Positions 4,695-38,310 of a stretch of 64,000 bases of DNA are shown one piece after another. How positions within the stretch are numbered: position 1 is the first letter of the stretch; every line of letters starts with the position of its first letter. The position numbers and the translations under genes are program-made. The stretch is taken from the IMG/VR virus record IMGVR_UViG_3300027917_000045; one strand, 5' to 3'. Origin of the DNA: an uncultured virus (IMG/VR IMGVR_UViG_3300027917_000045) (taxonomy: Duplodnaviria; Heunggongvirae; Uroviricota; Caudoviricetes). Under the pieces are notes generated by a model. The model had not been told where the DNA came from, did not search any database, and saw only the letters and a program-made list of their open reading frames with translations.

Positions 4695-7600
4695 ATGTCT
4701 AACGGTCAAGATGACCGTGGGGATAATACCCTACGGCCCTACCCTAATATCAACCTATCCGCAGCTGAGATCATAGCCCTCGAAGGTGAGAGACTAAGGC
4801 GTGAGGGTGAAGAGCCTACTGACACCGAGGGCGAGGGTAAAGAGAAGCTTAGCGGTAAAGCCCTTGAGTACAGGCACCAAGCAAACAGGTTCTTGCAAGC
4901 CTTTGTTGATGCCCACGAAACTATCAACCCTACAGGTAGAGCCGTCCGTAGGTATAAAGGTGTGGTTCCTGTCATCAAGAAGGGTGGTATCTTGTCTACC
5001 ACAGGGCCGATGCCAGCCATTACCGGAGCCTTCAATGCTACCATCGGTAACTTGTTTGGTTGGGAGATAGAACCAGAGCAGGTCACGCTCTCGCCAGATG
5101 AGGTTATCAACGCTGTCGGTGGTTTGGTCAATAAGCTATTCGGCCTCATCGGTATCGGTACAGATGTAGAGATCATTGGTGGCCCAGTCCCCAAGGACCC
5201 ACATGTATGGAATATCACTGATCCTCGTATCATTCCGCAGAGAGAGCTGACACCAGAAGAGAAACAGATCCGTTACATCAACAGGCTTGCCGCAGCTATC
5301 AGCTCCGGCGCACAGACCCTAGGTAACGTCGAGATGGATGTGGTCTCTGGTGAACTAGCTCCTCCTCTAGACAACACTGAGAAAATCCTTGATATGGTGG
5401 GTGGTGAGATTCCCTTGATCCTCGCTACTGTCGGTCTGGCCGGTCCTATGCAGAAAGTTGCAGGTAGAGCTGTTACAGGAATGCTGGGTGCTGAGTCTAT
5501 CGCTGCCAAAGGTGAGGCGATGATCGGTAAACAACTTGCCCGTGCTGGCTCACGAGGTAGAGTGCTCAACACCATCATGCAGGGACGGAGGTTTACTGGT
5601 CTAGCTGAGACTGAGGCTGGAGTCGAATTGCTCAAGGCTCGTGCCGGTGAGGCGTATGTTAAACAGATGGGTCAATGGTTGGGGTTGGACTTCCCTATCA
5701 CAGTCGGTTTTGCTGCCTCTGAGATACTGGGCGAAGACACGCTACACAGAATCACAGAAGGTCATGGTATTCCTGCCTCTGATGCACTGAAGACTATGGC
5801 CTTGTTCGGTGCCTTTGGCGCTGGTTTTGGTCTGGCCTTCCGTCCCGGCTCACCGCGACATCTAGCTCGTTTTGCTACTGAACTGTCGTCTGAAATCAGT
5901 GCGGGCTCTTTCAGGAATGTACCTAAAGGGTTCCGTATGGCTGGCAGAGTGTTCGAGGGAACTAGCCCCAAGGGTACTCCTATGTGGAGATGGCAGAAAG
6001 GCGTCGAGGTTGGTGGTAAGAAGGTAGGCGGGAAGAAAGCTCCTTCTCCCGCCGTGGAAGAGATCGGTGCATACTTCGATGATCTATTCAACCGCGCCTC
6101 TACTGCTTACAAGACAGGCACAGAAGAGGCAGTACAGGAAGCCACGGAGAAGAGTGCTAGTTACAAACAGGTGTTAGAACAGTTCGATTCAGAGGCCAAC
6201 GCCATCCATTTCTCTGCTGCCAAGTACGCTACCACAGCTAGGAATAATTTCTTACGGCCCGCATCGCCTCATAAAAGAGTACCGTGGGAAGAGGTAGATG
6301 CTCGTATCAATGATCTGCATAATATCTATGCAGACCAGCGCCTACCTATCGGTGAAAGAACCGAAGCTATGGGAGAGATCATCGCTTTACGTAAGGCATA
6401 CAATATGCCGTATGAAGAGATGGCTAACGGCATCCCTCTCAGTGCAGAAGAAGCTGCTTACCGTTATGTAGTCAATGAGAACAATCCTACACAGTTGGCG
6501 AAGATAGCTGACGGGTTGGCTTCCAGCGACCCTGTAGTTGCCGCTCGTATCAGGCAGTTTCTTGCTGAGGGCTTTCCTGAGACTGAGACTAAAGCCGTTG
6601 CTGCTAGGTTGAAGAAGAGTGTAGGTCTAAACAGTAGAGGTGTCTCTCGTGACGTGGGGTATCTATGGGATGCAGAAGGTAATCGCATGGTACCTATCAC
6701 TGACTCTAAGTTTGGTATGGTTCGGGCTAGGGTAGTCTCTGGTCCTAAAGAAGGCAAGATCGTATCGGTTAATCTCAACGAGGTAAGCATTGAGCCACCC
6801 GCTGGACATACAGTTACATTGAAAGACAGGGAGGGGTTCTTCATAGCAGAGAGTATGCCTGCTGGAAAGAACACGGCTGTCGTTCGTAATATGAACAACC
6901 CTGATGAGGTCTTCGAGATTCCTTACTCTGCAATAGAGGAGATAAGTCCTCCTCCTACTAGTAACCCAATCGCTGAAGCGCAGATGGAATCGCAGGCTAA
7001 GATGGTCATGGAAGCATCTGAAACTGCTCCCGTACCTGCACAGGAAGTATCATTAAGAGGTGAGCCTGTTGAGTTAGTTGAGGCTGGTAGTGCTACTGCT
7101 AAAGTAAAGACTAAGAGAGGTCAGGAGACTGTACCTCTCGAAGACGTGAAGCGGTCTACCCGCAACAAGCCCAAGACCAAAGCGCAGAACGAGCAGGACA
7201 TGGGCAGGACCGATGTTGGTTCTGAGGTGGTTGACTTCGTTCCAGCTACACGTCCTGACACTAACCACCGTATTCTGTTTACTGTCATGCCTAACGAGGA
7301 AGCAGCTACATTCAGAGCCGCATGGGAGGCCGGTGATGTAGAGGCAGTCAAGACTCTTATGGCCAAGTGGAACGCTCACGTAGTCCCGCCTATGGGTCTG
7401 CGTGATGACTGGAAGATGTTTGGCATCGAGATTCCTTCTGCTGAACTGAATAGCAAGATGTACACCAAGAAGGCCAGAGCTATGCTTGCCAAGTTGAATG
7501 ACGCAGAAGGTAAAATTGACTGGCAAGGTAAACTTGGTTCTCCTGTCAACATCGGTGAGAATGCAGAGAACGTGTATCGTACTGGCAAGCTGTACGACAT

Positions 7601-10600
7601 CACCTATGATATGTGGGGCAAGACTGTCCGTAACACGTTGGATGTAAACACGATGGACCCAGCCGTGCAGACAGAGTATCTACGCAAGACCTTGGACATG
7701 TCAGAGAGCCTACATACCCCCCTTGAAAAGCAGGCCACTGCTGTACGTGGCGCTAAGAAAGCCAAACGTGCATCTCGCAAGAATGACCAACGAGCACAGG
7801 AACGTACAGCTCGCAGGATGGAACACGCTGCCGAGGAGAACTACCATAGAGAGAGAGCCGCTATTGCTGCTGATGAGGTTGAAGAGGTACAGAACCGTAT
7901 CCTCTCTGACCTTGAGGTTGAAGAGGCTAGATTCGATGCTCTTGCTGCTGAGGGTATTGGGGTTGAAGCTGAAGGTGCTGCTATCGTCGCAAGAACTAGA
8001 AAGCCGGGACCTCCACCTACTGCTGCTGAAATAGAGCAGGCAAGAGCAGATATGCTCACCGCTCAGGGTATCGGAGTGGAAGCTGAGGCTCCTATCGCCG
8101 GTACTGGTAGAGCACGTAGAGCTGCTATTGAACGTGTCGAGAAGGAAGAGAGTTGGGCTGATTGGGGTGACATCATCAAGTCTCAGGGAGTAGATGACAA
8201 CCCAATGGTTCTCCTACATGAGGATACAGTAGAGCGTCTGTTCATACACCGTGCTAGTAGGAACACCTTCCGTACAGAGTTGGTAGGTGAGAGTGGTAAT
8301 GTACTCTCTACCAAAGAGATGGACCTAACTGGTTTGATCGACTTCGCTCAGGGTAGAGGATTCAAGCCTACCTTATTCCGTACTGACAAGACTAGCGGGC
8401 TGTGGGTACATACTACACAGAGTGGTAGAGCAAACAGGACTACAGCTACGATTACTGAGGTTGATGGTGGTTTCAAGGCACAACAAGTAGAGACCATTGA
8501 AGTTCCCCGTGCTGTAAAGGTGCCACCTAGCGGAGAGATAGTCCCTGTCAAAGAGACGAGGATAGCTCAACATACTCTATCTAGAGAAGGTGTGGAGGTT
8601 GTAGGTGCCAATAAAGCTGGTGACAGGTACTTTGTTCGTGTACGTGATCCAGCGGTGAGAAATAAGTTTGCTACCCCTAGTGAGGGATTGCAGCTATTGA
8701 AGCGTGGTGGCCCTACCAAGGCTAGGGTAGCTCGTGACAAGCTGAGCGTGCCTGTCGAGGAGTTTGAGCCCGGGGTGCCTAGAGAAGGATTCCTCCGTAC
8801 AGAAGGTAGGCTACAGATAGTTGAGGGTCCGTTGCAGGGCATGACTCCCGAGGTTAAAGCTCAGCAACTTCGTGTGTTCACCACCGGAGAGTTGCTACCA
8901 GCCGGTACAGTGGTACAGAGAGAGGTTGGTGGTGCTGTGTTCCAGACAAGAGAGGCTGCCGAGAAGTGGCTTGTCAAAGAGGGATTCAAGTACGAGAAGG
9001 GTCCATACATGGTCCGTCAGCGTGAGTCTTCGTATGGTAGGCAGTGGACTGATGACCTTGAGGGTTGGTGGGAAGACCTGCCGATCGCCTTCAAAGACCC
9101 TGCTGTACTTAGTGACAAGATGGCTCTCAGGGCTATGTTGAAAGACAACGAGAACTCATTTACTGAGCTACTGCGTGGGTATATATGGAGAGACGGACGT
9201 ATCCCGCCTGAGTTGTCTGATGACGCTGCTCAATTCGTAGACCTATGGATTAAAGAGTTCGGTGACGTTGACCTGCCGTTCACTGCCGACTTGCGTAGAG
9301 CTATCGGTACACCGGGGATCAAGGACATTGGGCCTGCTTCAATGAGAACCGTAGCTCCAGAGGATGAGTTACAAGACTGGATCGTGGAGACTACTAGCAA
9401 CCTGTTGGAGGCTAACCCTCAATACAAGTGGTTCCAGACTGGTAAGGCTGGAGCTAAGAAGCATGGTGCTACAGCGGCTAGAGTACCTCATCAAGGTACA
9501 TACTATGGCTCTGTTAGGTACGCCAAGACCAACCCCAAGCTTGGCATCCTACGCTCTGCCCGTAAGCACGAGGAAATGTTGGGAGACATCACCGCTGGTA
9601 CAGGTTACCATGCTGCTGCTCCTAACCCTACTTACCCAGATGAGATGGCTTCTAGTCTTATGGGTGGTCAGAGGTTTGGTAGGCTCAAGACAGAAGGTGG
9701 TAGAGCTGTTGAGGTAGTACACTACCCGATGGAGGGTACCGAGGCTGTCGTTCGTATACCGTCTAGTGGCAGGACTAAGACTGTACCTAAGAGCGCATTG
9801 GACGAAGCTGAGTTCGGTATGAAATGGGGTCCCAATATGAAGGGTAGAGCTTTGGCTGTTGAAGGCGCTCCTGCTCGTGAGTTCTTCGAGAGACCTGACC
9901 CTATCGGGTTCGGTGCTGTAGAGGCCAAGATCGGGTTGGAAGGTGTGGAAGATCCAGTTCAGGTGGCAGTTGGTATAGCTAACCACGTTAAGGAGCTAGC
10001 CAAGAACATCAGAGTACGAAAGAACGGCGCTTTCATCACTGACCCCAAGAACACAGATGCTCTGATTGAGGCGTACTCTCGCACTCAAGAGCTGCCTCTA
10101 TTTTGGGACCAGACTACAAAGGCATGGAAACACCCGCTGGAAGTACTCGACGCTTCTATGCCTAAACGCCTACGTAAGCCGCTAAAGATGGCCACATACT
10201 ACCGTGAATTAGCCAAGGCCAAAGAACACCCTCACGCTGAGTTAATAGCTCTGTCTAAAGCTGGTGCTCTCAGCCCACAACAGAGGGAGCTGCTACATGC
10301 GTGGACTAAAGATATGCGGAATATGATAGCCTCTCCGTCCAAGAGGAAGCTGACAGACTACGAGGCTATGCAGTTCCTTATCGAACACGAAGCTATAGAC
10401 CCTGTTGCTACCGCCTACGTCCGTGAGATGAGAGAAGCTGGTGCTATCGGTAAGTGGTTGGATGAGGCAGGTATTGGTAATGATATGCTACTGTGCACCA
10501 GCCCGTGTAAGAGTATCAGATTCTCTCGCTCTAAACTGATCGACATCAACTGGTTCGATAAGTGGATGGGTGTGAGTTGGAAGGTGTTCAATAAACATCC

Positions 10601-13600
10601 AGTGTCAAAGTACTTCGATGATATGGTACGGGAGTTTGCTGATACAGAGCGTAGGGAGTTGATGAACAACCTACAAGTGAGTGCTCTGTTAACTCAGAGA
10701 GGTTATACAACCAAAGACTTACGGACTGTAAAGAAGTTGATACAGAAGCACGGCTTCGATTGGGACGCGGCTGAGGCTGGTGGTGCTAACACCAAGTACC
10801 AAGGAGCTTTCGAGCTGCTCAATACGGAGTTTGACAACAAGCTGAAAAGGATCAAGACGTTCTTGATTAAGCGTGAAGCGGAGCCTATACGGTGGGACCC
10901 AGCAGCCGAGAAGGCTGCGGAGCAGAGGACAGTACTAGAAGCTCAAGGTATAAACTTCGACAAGATAGGCGATGACTTTCTCATCATGCCCGGGCACTCT
11001 AGGCCCGATATAGGCTTCAATCTACCAAAGATGGGTAGACGTAGTGAGGAGAGGATTCACCAGTTCCTCGATATGCAGGAGACTTTTGGTAAGGACATAA
11101 CAAAGGTACCGCAACATGTGAAGGATGAGATTATCGCTCTCGGTGATGACTGGATGCTGGATCAGTGGGATTTCTGGGGACGTTGGGGTAGAGATAACTT
11201 CTGGCCTTTGGTCCACAGTGGACAGTTCGCGGTTGAGTACGAAGGTACTTTGGTGGCATGGACCCAGAGCTATGATGACGCCTTTGCTGCTATTCGTCAC
11301 CTGATCAAGCAGTCCGGTGCGGGGGAGACAATAGGTGAGTACTCTGCTATGGGTAACTGGAACATTAACCTATCTCAGTGGGTGCCAGACGAGATCTATG
11401 CTCGTCACATGAAAGGGAAAGACTTCCAGAAGTTTGCTAAGTTGATGGGCGAACACCTTGAGACTGGTCCCGACGAGATCAGAGCTGTTATTACTAGGCA
11501 GGATAAGCTGCCTCCCGGTATGAAACCCGGGAGTATAGTCCATGCCTTTGAACGTAAGGCTAACCTAGAGCCGCTGTTCGATGACCCCATGACCGAGTAT
11601 CTAGTGTACAGTGCTCGTGTTGAACGTGCTCTATTCAAACAGCGTGTGGGTGAGGCATACGAGAGGGCTGTGGCTGACAAGGCATTTGACCACGCACTCT
11701 CTGCTCGTGCAGAACTGCCTCCACTCCACAGGATGACTAACCTAAAGAAGGCTGTAGGTGAGGCTTACCTACGTGCTATTGGTGAGTACACAGGCGGAGA
11801 CGCCTTTGCTGACGGTGTAGTTGGGTACTTTGAGTGGCTCAGGATCACACCGCAAGAGCTGGCAAGACGCGGTGGTAAGGCTGTAGGTATAGGCACCGAA
11901 GCTGCGTACCCAGAGATGGCTCTAGGTGACATCCTCAATCCAATGAGAGGATCGAAGGTCTTCCAACAGAAGTACCTTGCAAGGAAGAGAGCGTCTGAGG
12001 CAATTGCCTTCCAGTCTAACTTCAGATTGTTTGGCTCGTTATCCTCTGCCTTCGCCAATGCCTCTCAGTTCTGGGTCAACGTACCCAGTGTGTTGGTGAG
12101 AGATGGGCAGTGGGGCATGACTAAGGCTATGCAAGAGTCGATTAAAGCGTACAAGGACGCCAACGAGGTGTTCTTCCGTACAGCATTCAAAGCTGGACCT
12201 AATCTTGAGGCTTCCATCAAGAAGCTACCAGAGGACCTACAGCAGTTTGCTGCGATGGCAGATGAGTTGGGTATCGCTGCCATGCCCGGGAAGCACATGG
12301 TAGGTGCTGACTATGCTGGTATCGGTGACTTGTACAACATGGTACCTAACGCTTTGCTTACTGATACTAAGAGAGACTTGATGTGGAAATGGACCAAAAC
12401 CCTTGGTATGACTCCGTTTAATGGAGCTGAACGCACCAACCGCATGGCTACCATGATCGTGGGTTACCGTAAAGGTTTAGCTCATGGTCTGGATGACAAC
12501 GCAGCCAGACAGTACGCTAAGAACATGGTGCGTGAGACTCAGTTCCAATACGATGAGATCTCCATGCCACTAGGGTTCACGAAACTGGGTCCTGCTGGGC
12601 GTATGCTCTTGCAGTTTAAGCCTTTCGTAGCTAACCAGTTGGGCTTCGAGAAGGACCTAGTGATGAAAGCGTTCATCAATCCAGCTACAGGTAAGGCAGG
12701 GATTGATGCTAAAGCTGTACAAGCTCTAGCTACACACTGGGCTATGTATTCAGTATGGGGTGGTATACGTGGTATAGCCGCCAGCCCTGCTATCGCTGCT
12801 CTGGGCCTGCCTTACTTCCTTATGACAGGTAAGAGACCTGACCAGCTGCTTATGGGTATGTTGAGGAAGAGCAGGAACTCTAAGCGTGAGCCTTGGGAGA
12901 AGTTCACTGATAGCCACAAGGCTCTGTCCAGTGACATTCTTTGGTATGGGTTACCTGCACTTGGTAGGATGTCTCTAGGCAACAGGGTAGGTGTGAGTGG
13001 TCAGGAGTTGATGAACTTCTGGGAGATCCCGGGCATATTCGGTCCTCATGGTTCTATTTTTGCTGACGTTTTCTCGGCCTACAAAGGCTACGCTAGAACT
13101 AAAGGTTCATGGCTGGGAGTAGGTGGCGGTATAGCCGGTGCTGTTGCGCCTTCATTACTACCCTCTGTTGGTGGTGGGTTCGTGAAGAAGGTAATGCCAC
13201 TGGGGCGTGTAGGTGGTGGTTTGCTTGGTGCCAGTGCTGCCACAGGTAAACTCCCCGGCGTTGATCTGTTTCACTACCCTAACCCTTTCTACGAGTTCTT
13301 AGAAAAGGAACCACAAGGTAAGGCTCTGTCACGTAGAGCTGTACCTACACTACTCCGTAACTTTATACGGTCAGTAGAGATAATGAACACTGGAGCAGTA
13401 AGAGATATGGAGTTCCGTCCTAACTATATAACTGCCGACGATAAGACTGAGGCTATGGTTGCTGCGTTGTTCGGTGTGCAGACAGTGAGTGCGGAGGAAC
13501 GTAACGCTGCGCTGGGTCTGTTGTTTAGTGAGGCTGCGTTGTATGACAATACGAAGAAGACGTTGGTAGAACGTATAGCCAGAGCTACAGCGGAGGGAGA

Positions 13601-13772
13601 CAAAGAGGGTGTCGCTGAAGCGTGGCGCTCTGCCCATGAACAAGGCATTGTAATTGGTAACGAAGAGATTAACCGCCAGCTCAAGAACATCCAACAGGAT
13701 GCTGAGCGTACACTACGCCAGAACGTGACATCCGAAATACGGCACCGAGAGTGGCGTAGAGGCGGCATTTGA
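4695..13772 (+). CDS. Giant (3025 aa) internal virion/DNA ejection protein, large polyvalent protein-like
   Basis: Very long ORF at the end of the virion module. C-terminal ...VRETQFQY...LLQFKPF... region resembles podovirus ejection proteins. Confidence 0.6.
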   Translation: MSNGQDDRGDNTLRPYPNINLSAAEIIALEGERLRREGEEPTDTEGEGKEKLSGKALEYRHQANRFLQAFVDAHETINPTGRAVRRYKGVVPVIKKGGILSTTGPMPAITGAFNATIGNLFGWEIEPEQVTLSPDEVINAVGGLVNKLFGLIGIGTDVEIIGGPVPKDPHVWNITDPRIIPQRELTPEEKQIRYINRLAAAISSGAQTLGNVEMDVVSGELAPPLDNTEKILDMVGGEIPLILATVGLAGPMQKVAGRAVTGMLGAESIAAKGEAMIGKQLARAGSRGRVLNTIMQGRRFTGLAETEAGVELLKARAGEAYVKQMGQWLGLDFPITVGFAASEILGEDTLHRITEGHGIPASDALKTMALFGAFGAGFGLAFRPGSPRHLARFATELSSEISAGSFRNVPKGFRMAGRVFEGTSPKGTPMWRWQKGVEVGGKKVGGKKAPSPAVEEIGAYFDDLFNRASTAYKTGTEEAVQEATEKSASYKQVLEQFDSEANAIHFSAAKYATTARNNFLRPASPHKRVPWEEVDARINDLHNIYADQRLPIGERTEAMGEIIALRKAYNMPYEEMANGIPLSAEEAAYRYVVNENNPTQLAKIADGLASSDPVVAARIRQFLAEGFPETETKAVAARLKKSVGLNSRGVSRDVGYLWDAEGNRMVPITDSKFGMVRARVVSGPKEGKIVSVNLNEVSIEPPAGHTVTLKDREGFFIAESMPAGKNTAVVRNMNNPDEVFEIPYSAIEEISPPPTSNPIAEAQMESQAKMVMEASETAPVPAQEVSLRGEPVELVEAGSATAKVKTKRGQETVPLEDVKRSTRNKPKTKAQNEQDMGRTDVGSEVVDFVPATRPDTNHRILFTVMPNEEAATFRAAWEAGDVEAVKTLMAKWNAHVVPPMGLRDDWKMFGIEIPSAELNSKMYTKKARAMLAKLNDAEGKIDWQGKLGSPVNIGENAENVYRTGKLYDITYDMWGKTVRNTLDVNTMDPAVQTEYLRKTLDMSESLHTPLEKQATAVRGAKKAKRASRKNDQRAQERTARRMEHAAEENYHRERAAIAADEVEEVQNRILSDLEVEEARFDALAAEGIGVEAEGAAIVARTRKPGPPPTAAEIEQARADMLTAQGIGVEAEAPIAGTGRARRAAIERVEKEESWADWGDIIKSQGVDDNPMVLLHEDTVERLFIHRASRNTFRTELVGESGNVLSTKEMDLTGLIDFAQGRGFKPTLFRTDKTSGLWVHTTQSGRANRTTATITEVDGGFKAQQVETIEVPRAVKVPPSGEIVPVKETRIAQHTLSREGVEVVGANKAGDRYFVRVRDPAVRNKFATPSEGLQLLKRGGPTKARVARDKLSVPVEEFEPGVPREGFLRTEGRLQIVEGPLQGMTPEVKAQQLRVFTTGELLPAGTVVQREVGGAVFQTREAAEKWLVKEGFKYEKGPYMVRQRESSYGRQWTDDLEGWWEDLPIAFKDPAVLSDKMALRAMLKDNENSFTELLRGYIWRDGRIPPELSDDAAQFVDLWIKEFGDVDLPFTADLRRAIGTPGIKDIGPASMRTVAPEDELQDWIVETTSNLLEANPQYKWFQTGKAGAKKHGATAARVPHQGTYYGSVRYAKTNPKLGILRSARKHEEMLGDITAGTGYHAAAPNPTYPDEMASSLMGGQRFGRLKTEGGRAVEVVHYPMEGTEAVVRIPSSGRTKTVPKSALDEAEFGMKWGPNMKGRALAVEGAPAREFFERPDPIGFGAVEAKIGLEGVEDPVQVAVGIANHVKELAKNIRVRKNGAFITDPKNTDALIEAYSRTQELPLFWDQTTKAWKHPLEVLDASMPKRLRKPLKMATYYRELAKAKEHPHAELIALSKAGALSPQQRELLHAWTKDMRNMIASPSKRKLTDYEAMQFLIEHEAIDPVATAYVREMREAGAIGKWLDEAGIGNDMLLCTSPCKSIRFSRSKLIDINWFDKWMGVSWKVFNKHPVSKYFDDMVREFADTERRELMNNLQVSALLTQRGYTTKDLRTVKKLIQKHGFDWDAAEAGGANTKYQGAFELLNTEFDNKLKRIKTFLIKREAEPIRWDPAAEKAAEQRTVLEAQGINFDKIGDDFLIMPGHSRPDIGFNLPKMGRRSEERIHQFLDMQETFGKDITKVPQHVKDEIIALGDDWMLDQWDFWGRWGRDNFWPLVHSGQFAVEYEGTLVAWTQSYDDAFAAIRHLIKQSGAGETIGEYSAMGNWNINLSQWVPDEIYARHMKGKDFQKFAKLMGEHLETGPDEIRAVITRQDKLPPGMKPGSIVHAFERKANLEPLFDDPMTEYLVYSARVERALFKQRVGEAYERAVADKAFDHALSARAELPPLHRMTNLKKAVGEAYLRAIGEYTGGDAFADGVVGYFEWLRITPQELARRGGKAVGIGTEAAYPEMALGDILNPMRGSKVFQQKYLARKRASEAIAFQSNFRLFGSLSSAFANASQFWVNVPSVLVRDGQWGMTKAMQESIKAYKDANEVFFRTAFKAGPNLEASIKKLPEDLQQFAAMADELGIAAMPGKHMVGADYAGIGDLYNMVPNALLTDTKRDLMWKWTKTLGMTPFNGAERTNRMATMIVGYRKGLAHGLDDNAARQYAKNMVRETQFQYDEISMPLGFTKLGPAGRMLLQFKPFVANQLGFEKDLVMKAFINPATGKAGIDAKAVQALATHWAMYSVWGGIRGIAASPAIAALGLPYFLMTGKRPDQLLMGMLRKSRNSKREPWEKFTDSHKALSSDILWYGLPALGRMSLGNRVGVSGQELMNFWEIPGIFGPHGSIFADVFSAYKGYARTKGSWLGVGGGIAGAVAPSLLPSVGGGFVKKVMPLGRVGGGLLGASAATGKLPGVDLFHYPNPFYEFLEKEPQGKALSRRAVPTLLRNFIRSVEIMNTGAVRDMEFRPNYITADDKTEAMVAALFGVQTVSAEERNAALGLLFSEAALYDNTKKTLVERIARATAEGDKEGVAEAWRSAHEQGIVIGNEEINRQLKNIQQDAERTLRQNVTSEIRHREWRRGGI

Positions 13773-26684: not shown

Positions 26685-26925
26685 GGCAACGATTCGAGTG
26701 GTAATGGCCCTGAGTGGTGTTGTCTTTAAGTACGAGATCACCGCATCAGATGAACAAAGTTTACAAGCAAAGGCACGGGAACACTGTGCCATGATCGTCG
26801 CAACCGGCTATCGCAACCAGCGGGGCGACACCTATACGCATTGGCCACCGCACCTATTAGCGAAGGTGCAAGCTATCGGCGTTAAGGTGCCGACCGATTA
26901 CCCCGACGAGATTGAAGGCACATGA
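26671..26925 (+). CDS. Small hypothetical protein (MSESKA...)
   Basis: Start within a 19-bp repeat. Confidence 0.55.
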   Translation: MSESKATIRVVMALSGVVFKYEITASDEQSLQAKAREHCAMIVATGYRNQRGDTYTHWPPHLLAKVQAIGVKVPTDYPDEIEGT

Positions 26926-27170
26926 GCGAGAGTAAGGCAGTAGCCGAGTACCGAGAGGCGCTAATGGAACTAGAGTGGGCGGTACGCCGCCATCAGTCGT
27001 CTACTGCCATTGATGATGACGGTCGGGCACGGAATATCGTTGAAGCCGAAGCCCGACTGGACGAGGCCGTTGTGGGGCTTATGGTAGAGTGTGCGTCTTG
27101 GTATGGGCCGATGGACTTAGCGGAGCGTAAAGCCCGATCCCTACTAAGAGGAAAGGAGAAAGGAGAATGA
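26922..27170 (+). CDS. Small hypothetical protein (MSESKA...)
   Basis: ATGA overlap; start within the same 19-bp repeat. Confidence 0.55.
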   Translation: MSESKAVAEYREALMELEWAVRRHQSSTAIDDDGRARNIVEAEARLDEAVVGLMVECASWYGPMDLAERKARSLLRGKEKGE

Positions 27171-27286
27171 GCACACTCGCAATTGTGCTGGCAATAATAA
27201 CGCTTGCGTTCCCTCTCTGGGCTATTAGCGGACACCTATCACGCATAGCCGAACACAAGCGATTTGACAAAACAAACGAACCATGA
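27167..27286 (+). CDS. 39-aa membrane peptide
   Basis: MSTLAIVLAIITLAFPLWAISGHLSRIAEHKRFDKTNEP; AAGGAG SD; ATGA overlap. Confidence 0.5.
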   Translation: MSTLAIVLAIITLAFPLWAISGHLSRIAEHKRFDKTNEP

Positions 27287-27292
27287 TAGGTT
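27264..27292 (+). promoter_or_regulatory. Sigma70-type promoter driving the ncRNA array/Ro60 operon
   Basis: Perfect TTGACA, 17-nt spacer, extended -10 TGn-TAGGTT. Confidence 0.75.
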
Positions 27293-27350
27293 GCGCGTGC
27301 CGTTGAACTCTACCGTTAAGCGGCACACCTCCTTTCGGTTGGGCCAAGAA

Positions 27351-27424
27351 GTAGAGGGCCGGAGTAGATAGGTTATCGTTGATAAGGGATTCAAGCTGAC
27401 TCCTACTACACCCCTAGCCCCTAC
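27351..27424 (+). ncRNA. Y RNA-like element 1 (short insert)
   Basis: GTAG-A-GGGC/GCCCCTAC terminal stem, GGGCCGGA motif, GTAG-A-TAGG/CCTACTAC second stem, AGGTTATCG...ACTCCT junction. Confidence 0.7.
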
Positions 27425-27441
27425 GGCCTATAGAGGGGGAC

Positions 27442-27458
27442 GCTGTTTGAAAACTGAA
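27442..27458 (+). promoter_or_regulatory. rrn-type boxA-like antitermination element
   Basis: GCTGTTTGAAAACTGAA resembles the rRNA operon boxA (GTTCTTTGAAAACT type). Confidence 0.55.
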
Positions 27459-27463
27459 GGTAT

Positions 27464-27595
27464 GTTGGTTGGGACGGAGTGCTTAAGGTTATCGACTATT
27501 AATCGTGTGATATAGGTTCGAGTCCTATCGCTCCTTCGGGAGTGTAGCTCAATGGTAGAGCACAAAACACCTTAGCCGAGACTATTCTAATCAAC
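27464..27595 (+). ncRNA. yrlA: YrlA-type Y RNA (circularly permuted tRNA-like domain on a Ro-binding stem)
   Basis: 11-bp terminal stem GTTGGTTGGGA/TTCTAATCAAC; GCTTAAGG/CCTTAGC stem; T arm ATAGG-TTCGAGT-CCTAT; acceptor stem CGCTCC/GGAGTG closed by TTCG; D arm GCTC-AATGGTA-GAGC. Confidence 0.85.
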
Positions 27596-27603
27596 TTTGT
27601 ATA

Positions 27604-27790
27604 TGGGTGAGTACGGGGGACACTGAGGTTGTTCATCATTAACCTTGACTTATGGAGTAGTGTGAGGACAAAGAATCCAACCAGCTAGTTGGGACAGACC
27701 CTCGATCAAGCAAGACATAGTAACTATACAGCAGTAGTTCCGTTTCACCGTGCATTATCGTACTCAGTGTTAGACAGAGGTACTCACCCA
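27604..27790 (+). ncRNA. Y RNA-like element 3 (187 nt, large non-tRNA insert)
   Basis: Perfect 11-bp TGGGTGAGTAC/GTACTCACCCA, then GACACTGAG/CTCAGTGTT, variant junction AGGTTGTTC; internal stems CTTGA/TCAAG, GAGG/CCTC, CCAAC/GTTGG, AACTA/TAGTT. Confidence 0.65.
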
Positions 27791-27798
27791 AGAAAACT

Positions 27799-27903
27799 AT
27801 CGGGCCGTTGTGACTAGGTTATCGTTAATGGATAACACTTTCTTTTGAACAGAAAACTTGTGGGTTCGAGTCCCACGCCACACCTACCACGCTTTCGCCC
27901 GAT
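27799..27903 (+). ncRNA. Y RNA-like element 4 (normal-order tRNA body)
   Basis: ATCGGGC(C bulge)G/CGCCCGAT; TGTG..TAGG/CCTA.CACG; D arm GTTA-ATGGA-TAAC; TTTCT-TTTGAAC-AGAAA arm; T arm GTGGG-TTCGAGT-CCCAC. Confidence 0.75.
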
Positions 27904-27914
27904 TACATAGAAGA

Positions 27915-27993
27915 GGACGTGGGCCGGAGAGATAAGGTTACCGCTGACGCACAGACATCGACTCCTTATTTCAACCACTTGCCTTTATCGTCC
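27915..27993 (+). ncRNA. Y RNA-like element 5 (short insert)
   Basis: GGACG/CGTCC, GGGC(C bulge)GG/TTGCCT (compare vertebrate Y RNA GGUCCGA/CUUGACU), GAGATAAGG/CCTTATTTC, AGGTTACCG...ACTCCT. Confidence 0.7.
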
Positions 27994-28031
27994 GAAGAGG
28001 AGAGACCTTCACAAGGAGAGGAGTTCTGAAC

Positions 28032-29690
28032 ATGCGTTACCAACAGCACTATTCCACTCGTCACACCCCACAGACCCAGCCCATCCCCGGTAAGAAGATG
28101 GTTGAGATGGAGTCTGGGGGTTTTGCGTATAAGGTAGACAAGTGGACACAGCTGGATCGTTTCCTCATCCTAGGTACGCAGGGTGGAACCTACTATATAG
28201 GGGAGAGGGAGCTCACCGTAAAGAACTGTGATGCAGTAGTGGCCTGTATCAAGGAGGATGGAGTACGTCTGGTCAACAGGGTAGTAGAGGTATCCGATCA
28301 GGGCCTCGCACCCAAGAATGACCCTGCTCTATTCGTCTTGGCTATGGCCTCTGCGTTCGGTGACGAGAAGACTAGAGCGTATGCGTTCGAGGCACTAGAT
28401 CGTGTCGCTCGTATCGGCACCCACCTGTTCCAGTTCTGCGACTTTCGTGAGGCGTTCGCTGGTTGGGGCAGGGGTATGCGCTCTGCTGTATCCAACTGGT
28501 ACACTCGTAAGGAAGAGAGCAGACTGGCTTACCAACTGCTCAAGTACAAGCAGCGTAATGGTTGGAGCCACCGTGATGTGCTACGACTGGCACACCCCAA
28601 GCCTCAGAACGAAACGCAGAATGCCCTGTTCAAGTACACGACTCAGGGTATAGAGAAGATGGAGGTTGAAGAGAGACAGTTCCTACCTAATCAGGTGAAG
28701 GCGTATGAGGAGGTAGCTTACGCCCACCAGAATGATCAGATGAATGTAGAGAGCCTCATTCAGTACATCCAGAGGGACAGGCTCACTCGTGAGATGATCC
28801 CGACTGAGTACCTGAATGATCGCAACGTCATGGCTGCGATGTTGAACGACATGCCCATGCACGCACTGATCAGGAACCTAGGGAACCTGACTCGCATTGG
28901 TGTATTGGCTCCACTGTCTGATAACAGCAAGTACGTAGCAGACAAGCTGGTTGTGGCTGAAGCTATCCACCGCTCTCGACTGCACCCGTTCAGTATCCTT
29001 GCAGCTTCCAGTGTGTATGGACAGGGGCATGGTGCTAGAGGTAGAGGTGAGTGGACCCCTGATCAGCAGATTATGAACGCACTAGAAGCAGCGTTCTACC
29101 TGTCGTTCCAGAACGTGGTGCCTTCTGGTAAGAAGATCGTGTGTGGTATCGACTGGTCCGGTTCTATGGGTGGGCCTCGTAGTTACAGTGGGCGGTACTC
29201 TTACGGTGGGTACGGTATCAACGGTGTCCCCGGTATGAGCCCTGCCTATGGTGCTGCTGCTATGGCACTGATCACCAACGAGACAGAGGATCAGGTGCAT
29301 AACGTGGTGTTCGCAGGCACTATCAAGGACATTAGCCTGCGTAAGGGTATGAAGTTGAGTGAGGTAATGGAACTCACCGCCCGTGGTGTGGGTGAGGGTA
29401 CTGACTGTGCTCTGCCTCTGCGCTATGCCATGTCTTCGGGTATGCCTGCGGTGGATGCGTTCGTGCTTTACACCGACTCTCAATCTTGGCGTGGACCAAA
29501 GCATGTGAGTCAGGTCATAGATATGTACCGTCAGCACTACAGTCACCCGACCAAGCTGGTTGTCGTTCAGATGACGAGCAACGATTACAGTGTGGCTGAT
29601 GCTCAGGATGACCCGCTCAGTCTGAACGTGATCGGGTTCGATACCTCCGCACCTAAGATCATCAGTGACTTTGTTGCTGGGAGGTTCTAA
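28032..29690 (+). CDS. rsr: Ro60/Rsr TROVE + vWA domain RNA-binding protein
   Basis: GGFAYKVDKWTQLDRFLILGTQGGTYY, GWGRGMR, KYKQRNGWSHRDVLRLAHP, ALIRNLG, MIDAS DWSGSM, GTDCALP, YTD, GFD. Confidence 0.95.
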   Translation: MRYQQHYSTRHTPQTQPIPGKKMVEMESGGFAYKVDKWTQLDRFLILGTQGGTYYIGERELTVKNCDAVVACIKEDGVRLVNRVVEVSDQGLAPKNDPALFVLAMASAFGDEKTRAYAFEALDRVARIGTHLFQFCDFREAFAGWGRGMRSAVSNWYTRKEESRLAYQLLKYKQRNGWSHRDVLRLAHPKPQNETQNALFKYTTQGIEKMEVEERQFLPNQVKAYEEVAYAHQNDQMNVESLIQYIQRDRLTREMIPTEYLNDRNVMAAMLNDMPMHALIRNLGNLTRIGVLAPLSDNSKYVADKLVVAEAIHRSRLHPFSILAASSVYGQGHGARGRGEWTPDQQIMNALEAAFYLSFQNVVPSGKKIVCGIDWSGSMGGPRSYSGRYSYGGYGINGVPGMSPAYGAAAMALITNETEDQVHNVVFAGTIKDISLRKGMKLSEVMELTARGVGEGTDCALPLRYAMSSGMPAVDAFVLYTDSQSWRGPKHVSQVIDMYRQHYSHPTKLVVVQMTSNDYSVADAQDDPLSLNVIGFDTSAPKIISDFVAGRF

Positions 29691-38189: not shown

Positions 38190-38212
38190 TTCTAGACTAC
38201 CTACTAACCCGC

Positions 38213-38285
38213 GCCCCTGTAGTTTAACAAGTAAAACGTCAGCCTTTCAAGCTGGAGTTCTCCTGTGCAAGTCAGGGCGGGGGCG
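38213..38285 (+). tRNA. tRNA-Glu (UUC), atypical
   Basis: Acceptor GCCCCTG/CGGGGGC; D stem GTTT/AAAC; anticodon arm TCAGC-CTTTCAA-GCTGG; T arm TCCTG-TGCAAGT-CAGGG; no encoded CCA. Confidence 0.75.
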
Positions 38286-38310
38286 TTCACTATCAAGAGG
38301 GAGGTGTAGT

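Follow-up and report, generated by a model that had tools for sequence, protein, structure and literature searches.

A predicted YrlA-class Y RNA upstream of a viral Ro60 gene, with a permuted tRNA head that includes a split anticodon-type arm

A Y RNA with a permuted tRNA head

The window analyzed here is a stretch of 64,000 nucleotides (nt) of DNA from an uncultured virus (IMG/VR record IMGVR_UViG_3300027917_000045), and its positions 27464-27596 (+) very probably encode a YrlA-class Y RNA whose head is a permuted tRNA including a split anticodon-type arm. The RNA belongs to the second of four tandem modules (module 2) in a non-coding gap, and 436 nt separate it from the start of a Ro60/TROVE open reading frame (ORF) on the same strand, well inside the ~4 kb used for YrlA assignment by Chen et al. 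2014. An original prediction, made from the sequence alone, had described a YrlA-type circularly permuted tRNA mimic opened after nt 28 (tRNA numbering) at the junction with the Ro60 stem; every element that it named was found in place on direct reading of the sequence, and both the anatomy of the RNA and its relatives support the description. The structure is real and well supported; the uniqueness of the locus is not, the split-arm build being, as judged from sequence comparison, the normal architecture of the GGUUAYC-type YrlA family and not a special property of this locus.

The features of the RNA are listed in Table 1. In the proposed architecture the base, made up of the terminal stem and GGGACGGAG, is the part expected to bind Ro60. 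Within GGGACGGAG, GACGGAG corresponds to the 5' GNCGAAN0-1G-type motif of YrlAs, and its fifth-position G is also found in the M. smegmatis row of the published seed alignment. The head would form a complete circularly permuted tRNA fold consisting of a T arm, a UUCG-capped acceptor stem, a D arm and an anticodon-type arm; the first three follow one another in the order typical of YrlA (T arm, closed acceptor stem-loop, D arm) in the alignments to both the Rfam YrlA model and our own covariance model, R1. The Ro60-binding stem would join the head after nt 28 via a three-way junction with UAU and AAAC as linkers, UAU being part of AGGUUAUCG, in which C27493 represents nt 29. A GG/CC helix equivalent to helix A occurs in related elements and in all four modules of the window.

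The anticodon-type arm has the 5-base-pair (bp) stem, 7-nt loop, U33 and purine at position 37 of a tRNA anticodon arm, with one discontinuous stem strand. Its 3' strand, UCGUG (27503-27507, nt 39-43), pairs in cis with CGA to give a 3-bp hairpin displaying the triplet AUU, which A27491 and U27492 are unable to extend; the trans pairs C27563-G27507 and A27564-U27506, formed with the two nucleotides that follow A26, lengthen the stem to 5 bp. A Levitt-type pair, as expected for YrlA, can form between A15 (27552) and U48 (27511). The acceptor-type stem is closed by UUCG, with no free ends, leader, discriminator or CCA.

Table 1. Predicted features of the module 2 RNA, the other modules of the gap and the adjoining Ro60 gene.
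Feature	Position	Strand	Evidence or remark
Whole YrlA-class Y RNA, module 2 of four, predicted ends	27464-27596	+	Rfam YrlA match, R1 match, terminal stem
Terminal stem, 5' strand GUUGGUUGGGA, partner 27585-27595	27464-27474	+	Minimum free energy (MFE) fold; pair probabilities 0.90-0.999
GGGACGGAG, likely Ro60-binding motif, GNCGAAN0-1G variant	27471-27479	+	Motif of Chen et al. 2014; binding presumed from the motif
Helix A, 5' strand AAGGU, partner ACCUU 27569-27573; enters the three-way junction	27485-27489	+	Pair probabilities 0.67-0.77
AGGUUAUCG, conserved GGUUAYC family motif	27486-27494	+	Motif also in the 2014 seed rows
Anticodon-type arm: CGA 27493-27495 (nt 29-31), loop CUAUUAA 27496-27502 (nt 32-38)	27493-27507	+	Sequence, R1, family statistics
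Variable loop UGAU, 4 nt	27508-27511	+	One-position deletion relative to the family consensus AGGUC in R1
T arm AUAGG-UUCGAGU-CCUAU	27512-27528	+	Rfam YrlA, R1
Acceptor-type stem CGCUCC-UUCG-GGAGUG, 6 bp (one G-U)	27529-27544	+	Sequence, Rfam YrlA, R1
U8-A9 (27545-27546) and D arm GCUC-AAUGGUA-GAGC (27547-27561)	27545-27561	+	Rfam YrlA, R1
A26 (27562), then C27-A28 (27563-27564)	27562-27564	+	R1; family pairing
3' strands of helix A (27569-27573) and of the terminal stem (27585-27595)	27569-27595	+	MFE, pair probabilities
Module 1, Y-RNA-like stem, GGGCCGGAG 27356-27364, AGGUUAUCG 27370-27378	27340-27430	+	Motifs; no tRNA-like domain
Module 3, GGGCCGUUG 27802-27810, AGGUUAUCG 27816-27824	27799-27903	+	MFE fold z-score -2.0
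Module 4, GGGCCGGAG 27921-27929, AGGUUACCG 27935-27943	27915-27993	+	Stem-bulge-stem fold
Ro60 orthologue, presumed protein partner	28032-29690	+	552 amino acids (aa); Pfam TROVE 8.8e-49, vWA_Ro60 4.2e-37

The split arm in related elements

Relatives were collected from genome and viral contigs by two anchored scans (GGTTAYC ... GGTTCGA ... GTAGCTCA), which gave at least 257 matches and at least 237 unique elements; the counts below refer to the elements listed. A 5-bp stem (2-5 cis pairs plus the trans pairs), a 7-nt loop and a 4-5-nt variable loop were present in 174 of 237, made up of 94 of the 130 bacterial loci, 79 of the 106 viral loci and the window's own element. Shuffling the 30 nt upstream (200 shuffles) gave a mean of 15.2 and a maximum of 27 such arms; when U33 and R37 were also required, 150 arms remained as compared with a mean of 2.2 and a maximum of 8 after shuffling. 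Loops of 5, 6, 8 and 9 nt were found in 29, 28, 32 and 11 elements, respectively. The loops of the arm-bearing elements are tRNA-like in composition, with Y32 in 156, U33 in 161, R37 in 162 and A38 in 147 of the 174, and position 26 is a purine in all but two (172/174). A separate scan of the viral contigs with a T loop ... D arm pattern, leaving the 5' side unconditioned, returned 121 unique matches, mostly tandem tRNA genes, along with 16 permuted elements with a capped acceptor stem; ten of these 16 had a split or complete 5-bp arm with a 7-nt loop.

The trans pairs recur across the family. Both 27:43 and 28:42 form in 161 of the 173 elements with a cis hairpin of at least three pairs, a set chosen regardless of the 3' side; with permuted partners (1000 permutations) the mean was 58 and the maximum 74, and the neighboring cis nucleotides could make the same pairs in only 4 of 173. 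The pairs themselves vary, with GC 64, AU 50, CG 15, GU 10, UA 2 and UG 2 at 28:42 (given as 42-28) and GC 88, CG 24, AU 9, UA 6, GU 1 and UG 1 at 27:43 (given as 43-27). In a MAFFT alignment of 150 randomly chosen segments out of 236 unique ones, which was not fitted to any structure, the trans helix was 90.7% paired, through all six standard pair types; the whole structure was 94.1% paired as compared with 70.4% after shuffling and at most 48.4% when slid, and its covariation score of 0.583 (0.153 for the control) was reached by none of 500 shuffles. Even where the cis stem is fixed at CGA/UCG as in the window (36 parsed elements, from 95 loci), the trans pairs are kept in 34 of 36 through five or more pair combinations. 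An individual example is provided by L127, an element of viral record G018 that has GGUUAUCGACU.UUAAUCG in common with the window: the GC after its A26 pairs with GC at nt 42-43, as CA pairs with UG in the window. The 5-bp anticodon stem that had been proposed, CA plus CGA against UCGUG, is thus preserved in relatives through changes on both sides; the split-arm arrangement exceeds chance at the level of the family as sampled, and the identity and anatomy of the module 2 RNA are observed together with its conservation and covariation.

The hairpin is not new in itself, having been published as the "V stem-loop" of YrlA (Chen et al. 2014, PMC4201824). It is present in five of the seven rows of the 2014 seed alignment (R. 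etli, phage ET08, S. roseum, G. polyisoprenivorans and M. smegmatis), and in all five nt 27-28 can pair with nt 42-43. The same layout was recovered in the published YrlAs of phage Cali (CU plus CUC pairing with GAGAG, loop AUUGCAA), in two of the three CcrColossus copies (CU plus CGA with UCGAG, loop CUGUUAA; and CC plus CGC with GCGGG, loop AUCUGGA) and in phage G (CG plus GAC with GUCCG). The second of these CcrColossus copies overlaps an annotated "tRNA-Gln"; in the record of this Caulobacter phage (L130, JX100810.1 109217-109284) the "tRNA-Gln" is placed inside a YrlA copy published in 2014. The hairpin also occurs next to Ro60 genes in different bacterial phyla. The retention of an anticodon loop, which had been taken as unusual, therefore turns out to be standard in YrlA, as seen in the seed rows, the published phage copies and the 174 arm-bearing relatives. 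No text naming the hairpin an anticodon arm was found in the literature searched, the figures of Chen et al. 2014 falling outside that coverage; what may be new, as a modest by-product of the analysis, is the reading of "V" as a real anticodon arm that is split.

Tandem arrays of two or three YrlA copies (L141, L152, L159, L177, L192, L193, and L133 of record G018) often have a full arm in one copy beside a shortened or missing hairpin in another, and the family seems to keep the two forms side by side.

Model scores and folding energies

R1, built from 150 related sequences with the split-arm structure, matches window positions 27487-27564 end to end with 71.1 bits and an E-value of 5e-18, all 20 pairs being standard, and scores clear viral and phage copies at 50-91 bits. 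The Rfam YrlA model (RF02553), whose gathering score is 69, gives only 39 bits for 27479-27597; in this alignment the T, acceptor and D arms fit, with the model's inner 4-bp stem left wholly unpaired and a 3-nt insertion. The same shortfall was seen in every hairpin-bearing YrlA tested (L129, L130 and L131; 20 bacterial loci; and viral records G001, G011, G015, G017 and G018), the best score being 58.2 bits: published phage YrlAs gave 30-42 bits, and none of the five viral records or 20 bacterial loci passed. Since all tested members with the hairpin fail alike, the below-threshold score of the window reflects a model that lacks the hairpin.

It is extremely unlikely that the RNA instead folds as the Rfam consensus, with UGCUUA/UAAUCA and UCGACUA/UAGCCGA helices and no hairpin. 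The alignment produced by cmscan at 39 bits does place it in this fold, and 6/7 and 5/6 of the pairs are possible, but the unpaired inner stem noted above, the energy of -18.2 kcal/mol and an ensemble pair probability of 0.0 all speak against it, and the close relative L127/L133 lacks a partner for the UCGA segment while keeping the hairpin. The Rfam-style pairing of 27492-27498 with 27573-27579 was rejected on its ensemble probability of 0.

Several observations weigh against the proposed RNA and its split arm. The split-arm structure has an energy of -27.2 kcal/mol as compared with -37.7 for the MFE fold; its hairpin has a pair probability of 0.05-0.08 and its trans pairs of 0.004-0.005, and the MFE fold adopts the hairpin register UAUCGAC/GU-UGAUA in place of the split arm. 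The fold z-score of the whole module 2 is only -1.4. The window's 4-nt variable loop is a minority state, shared by 25 of the 174 arm-bearing elements. The sample of relatives is biased, exact GGTTAYC, GGTTCGA and GTAGCTCA together with a spacing suited to the hairpin having been required; its elements are also related to each other, and this phylogeny does not enter into the shuffles. In the seed alignment the hairpin is replaced by gaps in the rows of S. Typhimurium and P. fulva, and the arm is also missing in one CcrColossus copy and in the second copy of G018, so that a YrlA can do without it. That the RNA binds Ro60 and stacks as a tRNA does is inferred, as are its partner and its role. 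Because single-sequence thermodynamics does not single out the fold, the split arm rests on the comparison of relatives. The MFE register UAUCGAC/GU-UGAUA was rejected, its 3' strand being absent in relatives.

Anticodon arm or variable arm

The published name of the hairpin raises the question of whether it is a peripheral, variable-arm-like stem-loop, with the Ro60-side stem lying under the D stem and with no anticodon-like role. In the crystal structure of the S. Typhimurium YrlA domain the Ro60-side stem does take the position of the anticodon stem (10.1101/312249), and the absence of the hairpin from some YrlA copies and the failure of energy models to favor the 2-bp trans helix would also agree with a peripheral element. 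The variable region argues otherwise. The nucleotides between hairpin and T stem have the family consensus A-G-G-U-C, a 5-nt loop of the class-I tRNA type (5 nt in 150 elements, 4 nt in 25, any other length in at most 19), and a variable arm would not precede such a complete variable loop. Positions 15 and 48 covary, with G:C in 167 and A:U in 50 (217 of 237 elements; A:U in the window). Because of the AGGUC loop and this covariation, the hairpin sits where nt 39-43 end, outside the variable region, whereas a class-II variable arm would be a stem-loop within nt 44-48 directly before the T stem; here a separate 4-5-nt loop intervenes. In addition, the 7-nt loop is fixed, with U33 and R37 (174 elements against at most 32 for any other size), the two nucleotides that follow position 26 bring the stem to exactly 5 bp, exactly one purine stands between the D stem and the trans pairs, and in the window a stem-loop without the trans pairs would leave seven nucleotides (ACAAAAC) between the D stem and helix A, which misfits a tRNA-like stack. 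A merely peripheral hairpin is thus distinctly improbable, and the data favor the anticodon-arm over the variable-arm reading of "V".

A stronger proposal is that the "V" hairpin of most YrlAs is a true anticodon arm under tRNA-like selection and that the Ro60 particle acts as a sensor, decoy or repair platform. It is suggested by the 7-nt loop, by U33, R37 and A38 and by the habit, shared with tRNAs, of G37 to follow G36 and of A37 to follow U36, and we regard it as tentative and on balance rather doubtful. If it were true, the RNA partner of Ro60 would present a complete tRNA including the anticodon loop, and this loop could be engaged by the enzymes of t6A37 or m1G37 modification or by anticodon nucleases.

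The loop triplet and possible roles

Among the 174 arm-bearing elements 45 different triplets occur, GUU being the commonest (16) and AUU occurring four times, the window included. Positions 34 and 35, with entropies of 1.88 and 1.86 bits, respectively, are close to random, and triplets that would read stop codons are present (UCA 3, UUA 1). The AUU of the window is therefore best described, from the sequences compared, as one variant of the family loop C-U-N-N-U-A-A and not as a conserved display. The Asn/Lys-like loop to which the original prediction had attached importance has no conserved meaning, with AUU being one of 45 triplets, and because it is not conserved the triplet is not read.

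Positions 36 and 37 are coupled in the same way as in tRNAs, with U36-A37 in 84, G36-G37 in 32 and C36-A37 in 28 of the 174 loops, and 32 of the 37 loops with G37 also have G36. When neighbors are judged by the rest of the molecule, G36-G37 members lie scattered among U36-A37 members, and the coupling is not explained by drift. It may reflect selection by anticodon-loop enzymes or C32-G37-closed tetraloops; 12 of the 39 G36 loops are NCG, and the coupling could stem in part from UNCG-like tetraloops closed by C32-G37.

In the mechanism envisaged, by analogy with characterized Ro60 systems, the RNA would sit on the Ro60 ring while its tRNA-shaped head docks a tRNA-recognizing partner or an exoribonuclease such as the host PNPase, the anticodon arm supplying the full long arm of the L shape. 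A more specific role, in which the loop of the uncharged mimic would be a decoy for, or a sensor of, tRNA-cutting enzymes of the PrrC/RloC type, with the Ro60 particle protecting tRNAs or being switched by the cut, is putative and improbable. The conserved framework of C32, U33, R37 and A38 would suit it, as would the predominance of U36-A37 loops (the largest class) and the NUU triplets (31 of 174: GUU 16, UUU 9, AUU 4, CUU 2), and an arms race could produce the hypervariable triplet. Two papers point in the same direction, one placing Ro60 with RNA-repair systems in jumbo phages (PMC7824862) and the other reportedly describing Salmonella YrlA in an RNA-repair operon under the control of damaged tRNAs (PMC7790460). 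Against this, the triplet is free even where the cis stem is identical (16 triplets in the 36 CGA/UCG elements), A34 and stop-reading forms occur, and neutral drift would look alike; PHROG and Pfam scans of the larger ORFs of the window revealed no RNA ligase, RtcB or polynucleotide kinase, and the literature searches found no paper proposing such a role. A phage-specific counter-defense role in particular is not favored, because the arm is equally frequent in bacterial and viral loci.

Processing of the transcript into a working tRNA, by cutting and religation as from a permuted tRNA gene, had already been rated the less likely alternative, and we agree that it is very unlikely, to the point of being almost negligible. 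All tRNA parts are present, but the acceptor stem is a sealed 6-bp helix with a 4-nt UUCG loop, and the paired ends, 7-bp acceptor stem, discriminator and CCA of a functional tRNA are lacking, as is a leader. An A34 anticodon such as AUU is not a normal bacterial decoder, and the triplets of the family include stop-reading ones. The YrlA of M. smegmatis, in which the acceptor stem has 7 bp, does undergo cleavage by RNase P and gains CCA, but Wang et al. consider that the acceptor stems of most YrlAs would serve RNase P poorly as substrates (10.1101/312249).

On module 2 the Rfam tRNA model (RF00005) scores 19.1 bits against a cut-off of 29, and the ARAGORN call "tRNA-Asp atc" at 27458-27537, based on a different, spurious fold, was rejected as a tRNA gene. 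The combination of an anticodon-type hairpin with a T arm probably misleads tRNA finders, as in this case.

The Ro60 locus and the other modules of the gap

The gap upstream of Ro60 comprises 860 nt without ORFs (27171-28031), between small ORFs and the 552-aa ORF. The latter corresponds to PHROG 850 (RNA-binding protein) and shares 36-38% identity with the Ro-like proteins of Gordonia, Mycobacterium and Sinorhizobium phages. That the window is phage DNA is evident from its terminase, portal, major head protein, split family-A DNA polymerase and lytic tail protein. Among the relatives, a TROVE gene lies on the same strand within ~2.2 kb of the RNA in 18 of 20 bacterial loci, the remaining two having it 2.4 kb away on the other strand or having none nearby, and a TROVE gene was found in 8 of 17 viral records.

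Four tandem modules occupy the gap (window 27340-27993), each with GGGNCG(GAG/UUG) followed after 5-6 nt by AGGUUAYCG. GGGNCG starts at 27356, 27471, 27802 and 27921 and AGGUUAYCG at 27370, 27486, 27816 and 27935; the latter motif has four matches in the window, all of them in the gap, as compared with 0.68 expected. Only module 2 contains the permuted tRNA head. The structure of module 1 has no support from energy (fold z-score 0.2). In module 3 a terminal stem, AUCGGGC/GCCCGAU, carries a cloverleaf-like fold in normal order, in which a D-like arm and an anticodon-like arm (UUUCU-UUUGAAC-AGAAA) are followed by a T arm of canonical type. This module may represent either a tRNA-like Y RNA without permutation or a tRNA that has decayed. 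The ARAGORN call "tRNA-Ser tga" at 27807-27885, within module 3, was rejected as a tRNA gene (Rfam tRNA 25.8 bits, cut-off 29).

The nearest viral contig (G001, uncultured) is identical to the window over the gap, and there is thus no variation to compare. The gap had no blastn match among named phages, viral contigs queried with the Ro60 protein yielded no confirmed relative, and contigs from three DNA runs covering 27300-28040 showed no differences and no joints bearing on the RNA. A sigma-70 promoter scan of 26900-28100 found none, and terminator-like sites in this interval lie on the minus strand only.

Elsewhere in the window, the sole genuine tRNA gene is tRNA-Glu(UUC) at 38212-38286 (+), with 56.3 bits in the Rfam tRNA model. 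For an ORF of 3025 aa at 4695-13772 (+), neither Pfam nor PHROG gave a hit with the cut-offs applied; in length it may resemble the virion RNA polymerases of N4-like phages.

Implications

At the level of the locus, the result is an annotated phage cassette of Ro60 and Y RNA, and two tRNA calls turn out to be false. At the level of the family, the comparison suggests that the statement that YrlA lacks the anticodon loop, which is based on Salmonella, fails for most members, these looking like complete permuted tRNAs with a split anticodon stem. The range of candidate effectors would widen from binders of the tRNA elbow to include proteins that read the anticodon arm. The split arm also fits a proposal on the origin of YrlA, namely that it arose from dimeric tRNA transcripts in which the first tRNA contributed the anticodon and T arms. 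In practical terms, annotation at the curated threshold of the Rfam YrlA model would miss the hairpin-bearing class.

Comparison with known systems

The closest known systems are the YrlA RNAs (RF02553; Chen et al. 2014) of actinobacteria, cyanobacteria and phages, which, like the window RNA, lie upstream of Ro60/TROVE on the same strand. Shared features are the GNCGRA-type 5' motif, GGUUAYC, near-invariant T and D arms, the closed acceptor stem-loop, the Levitt-type 15:48 pair and, preceding the T arm, the hairpin. A 3+2 or 4+2 split stem as in the window is also seen in the five hairpin-bearing seed rows and in the YrlAs published for Cali, CcrColossus and phage G. The window differs from the usual YrlA in having a variable loop of 4 and not 5 nt, a very short UUCG-capped acceptor stem of 6 bp and the triplet AUU, and its Ro60 differs from known phage Ro60s to the extent of the low identity given above.

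Complexes of Ro60, Y RNA and PNPase have been described for D. radiodurans and S. Typhimurium (PMC4201824), and a Thermus phage Ro60 binds two Y-like RNAs and the host PNPase (PMC12135203).

With canonical tRNAs (RF00005) the window RNA shares the 5-bp anticodon stem and 7-nt loop, C32, U33, A37 and A38, as well as A26, a 4-nt variable loop, the T loop UUCGAGU, U8-A9 and A15:U48. It differs from them in that the T arm precedes the D arm, the acceptor stem is sealed by UUCG and the anticodon stem has a 5' strand that is interrupted between nt 28 and nt 29. Permuted tRNA genes likewise encode the 3' half of the tRNA before the 5' half, but give rise through a circular intermediate to working tRNAs with a free CCA, whereas the window RNA has an acceptor loop of only 4 nt and nothing that points to processing.

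The tRNA-like domain of S. Typhimurium YrlA (PDB 6CU1) forms, like that predicted for the window, a permuted L-shape with T, D and closed acceptor arms, and the Ro60 module leaves from the side of the anticodon stem. In that study (10.1101/312249), Wang et al. note that Salmonella YrlA "lacks the anticodon loop" and that the AS, AC and VL regions vary in size. Salmonella YrlA has no hairpin, whereas in the window RNA two base pairs are made with the 3' strand and the remainder of the arm is a cis hairpin with a 7-nt loop.

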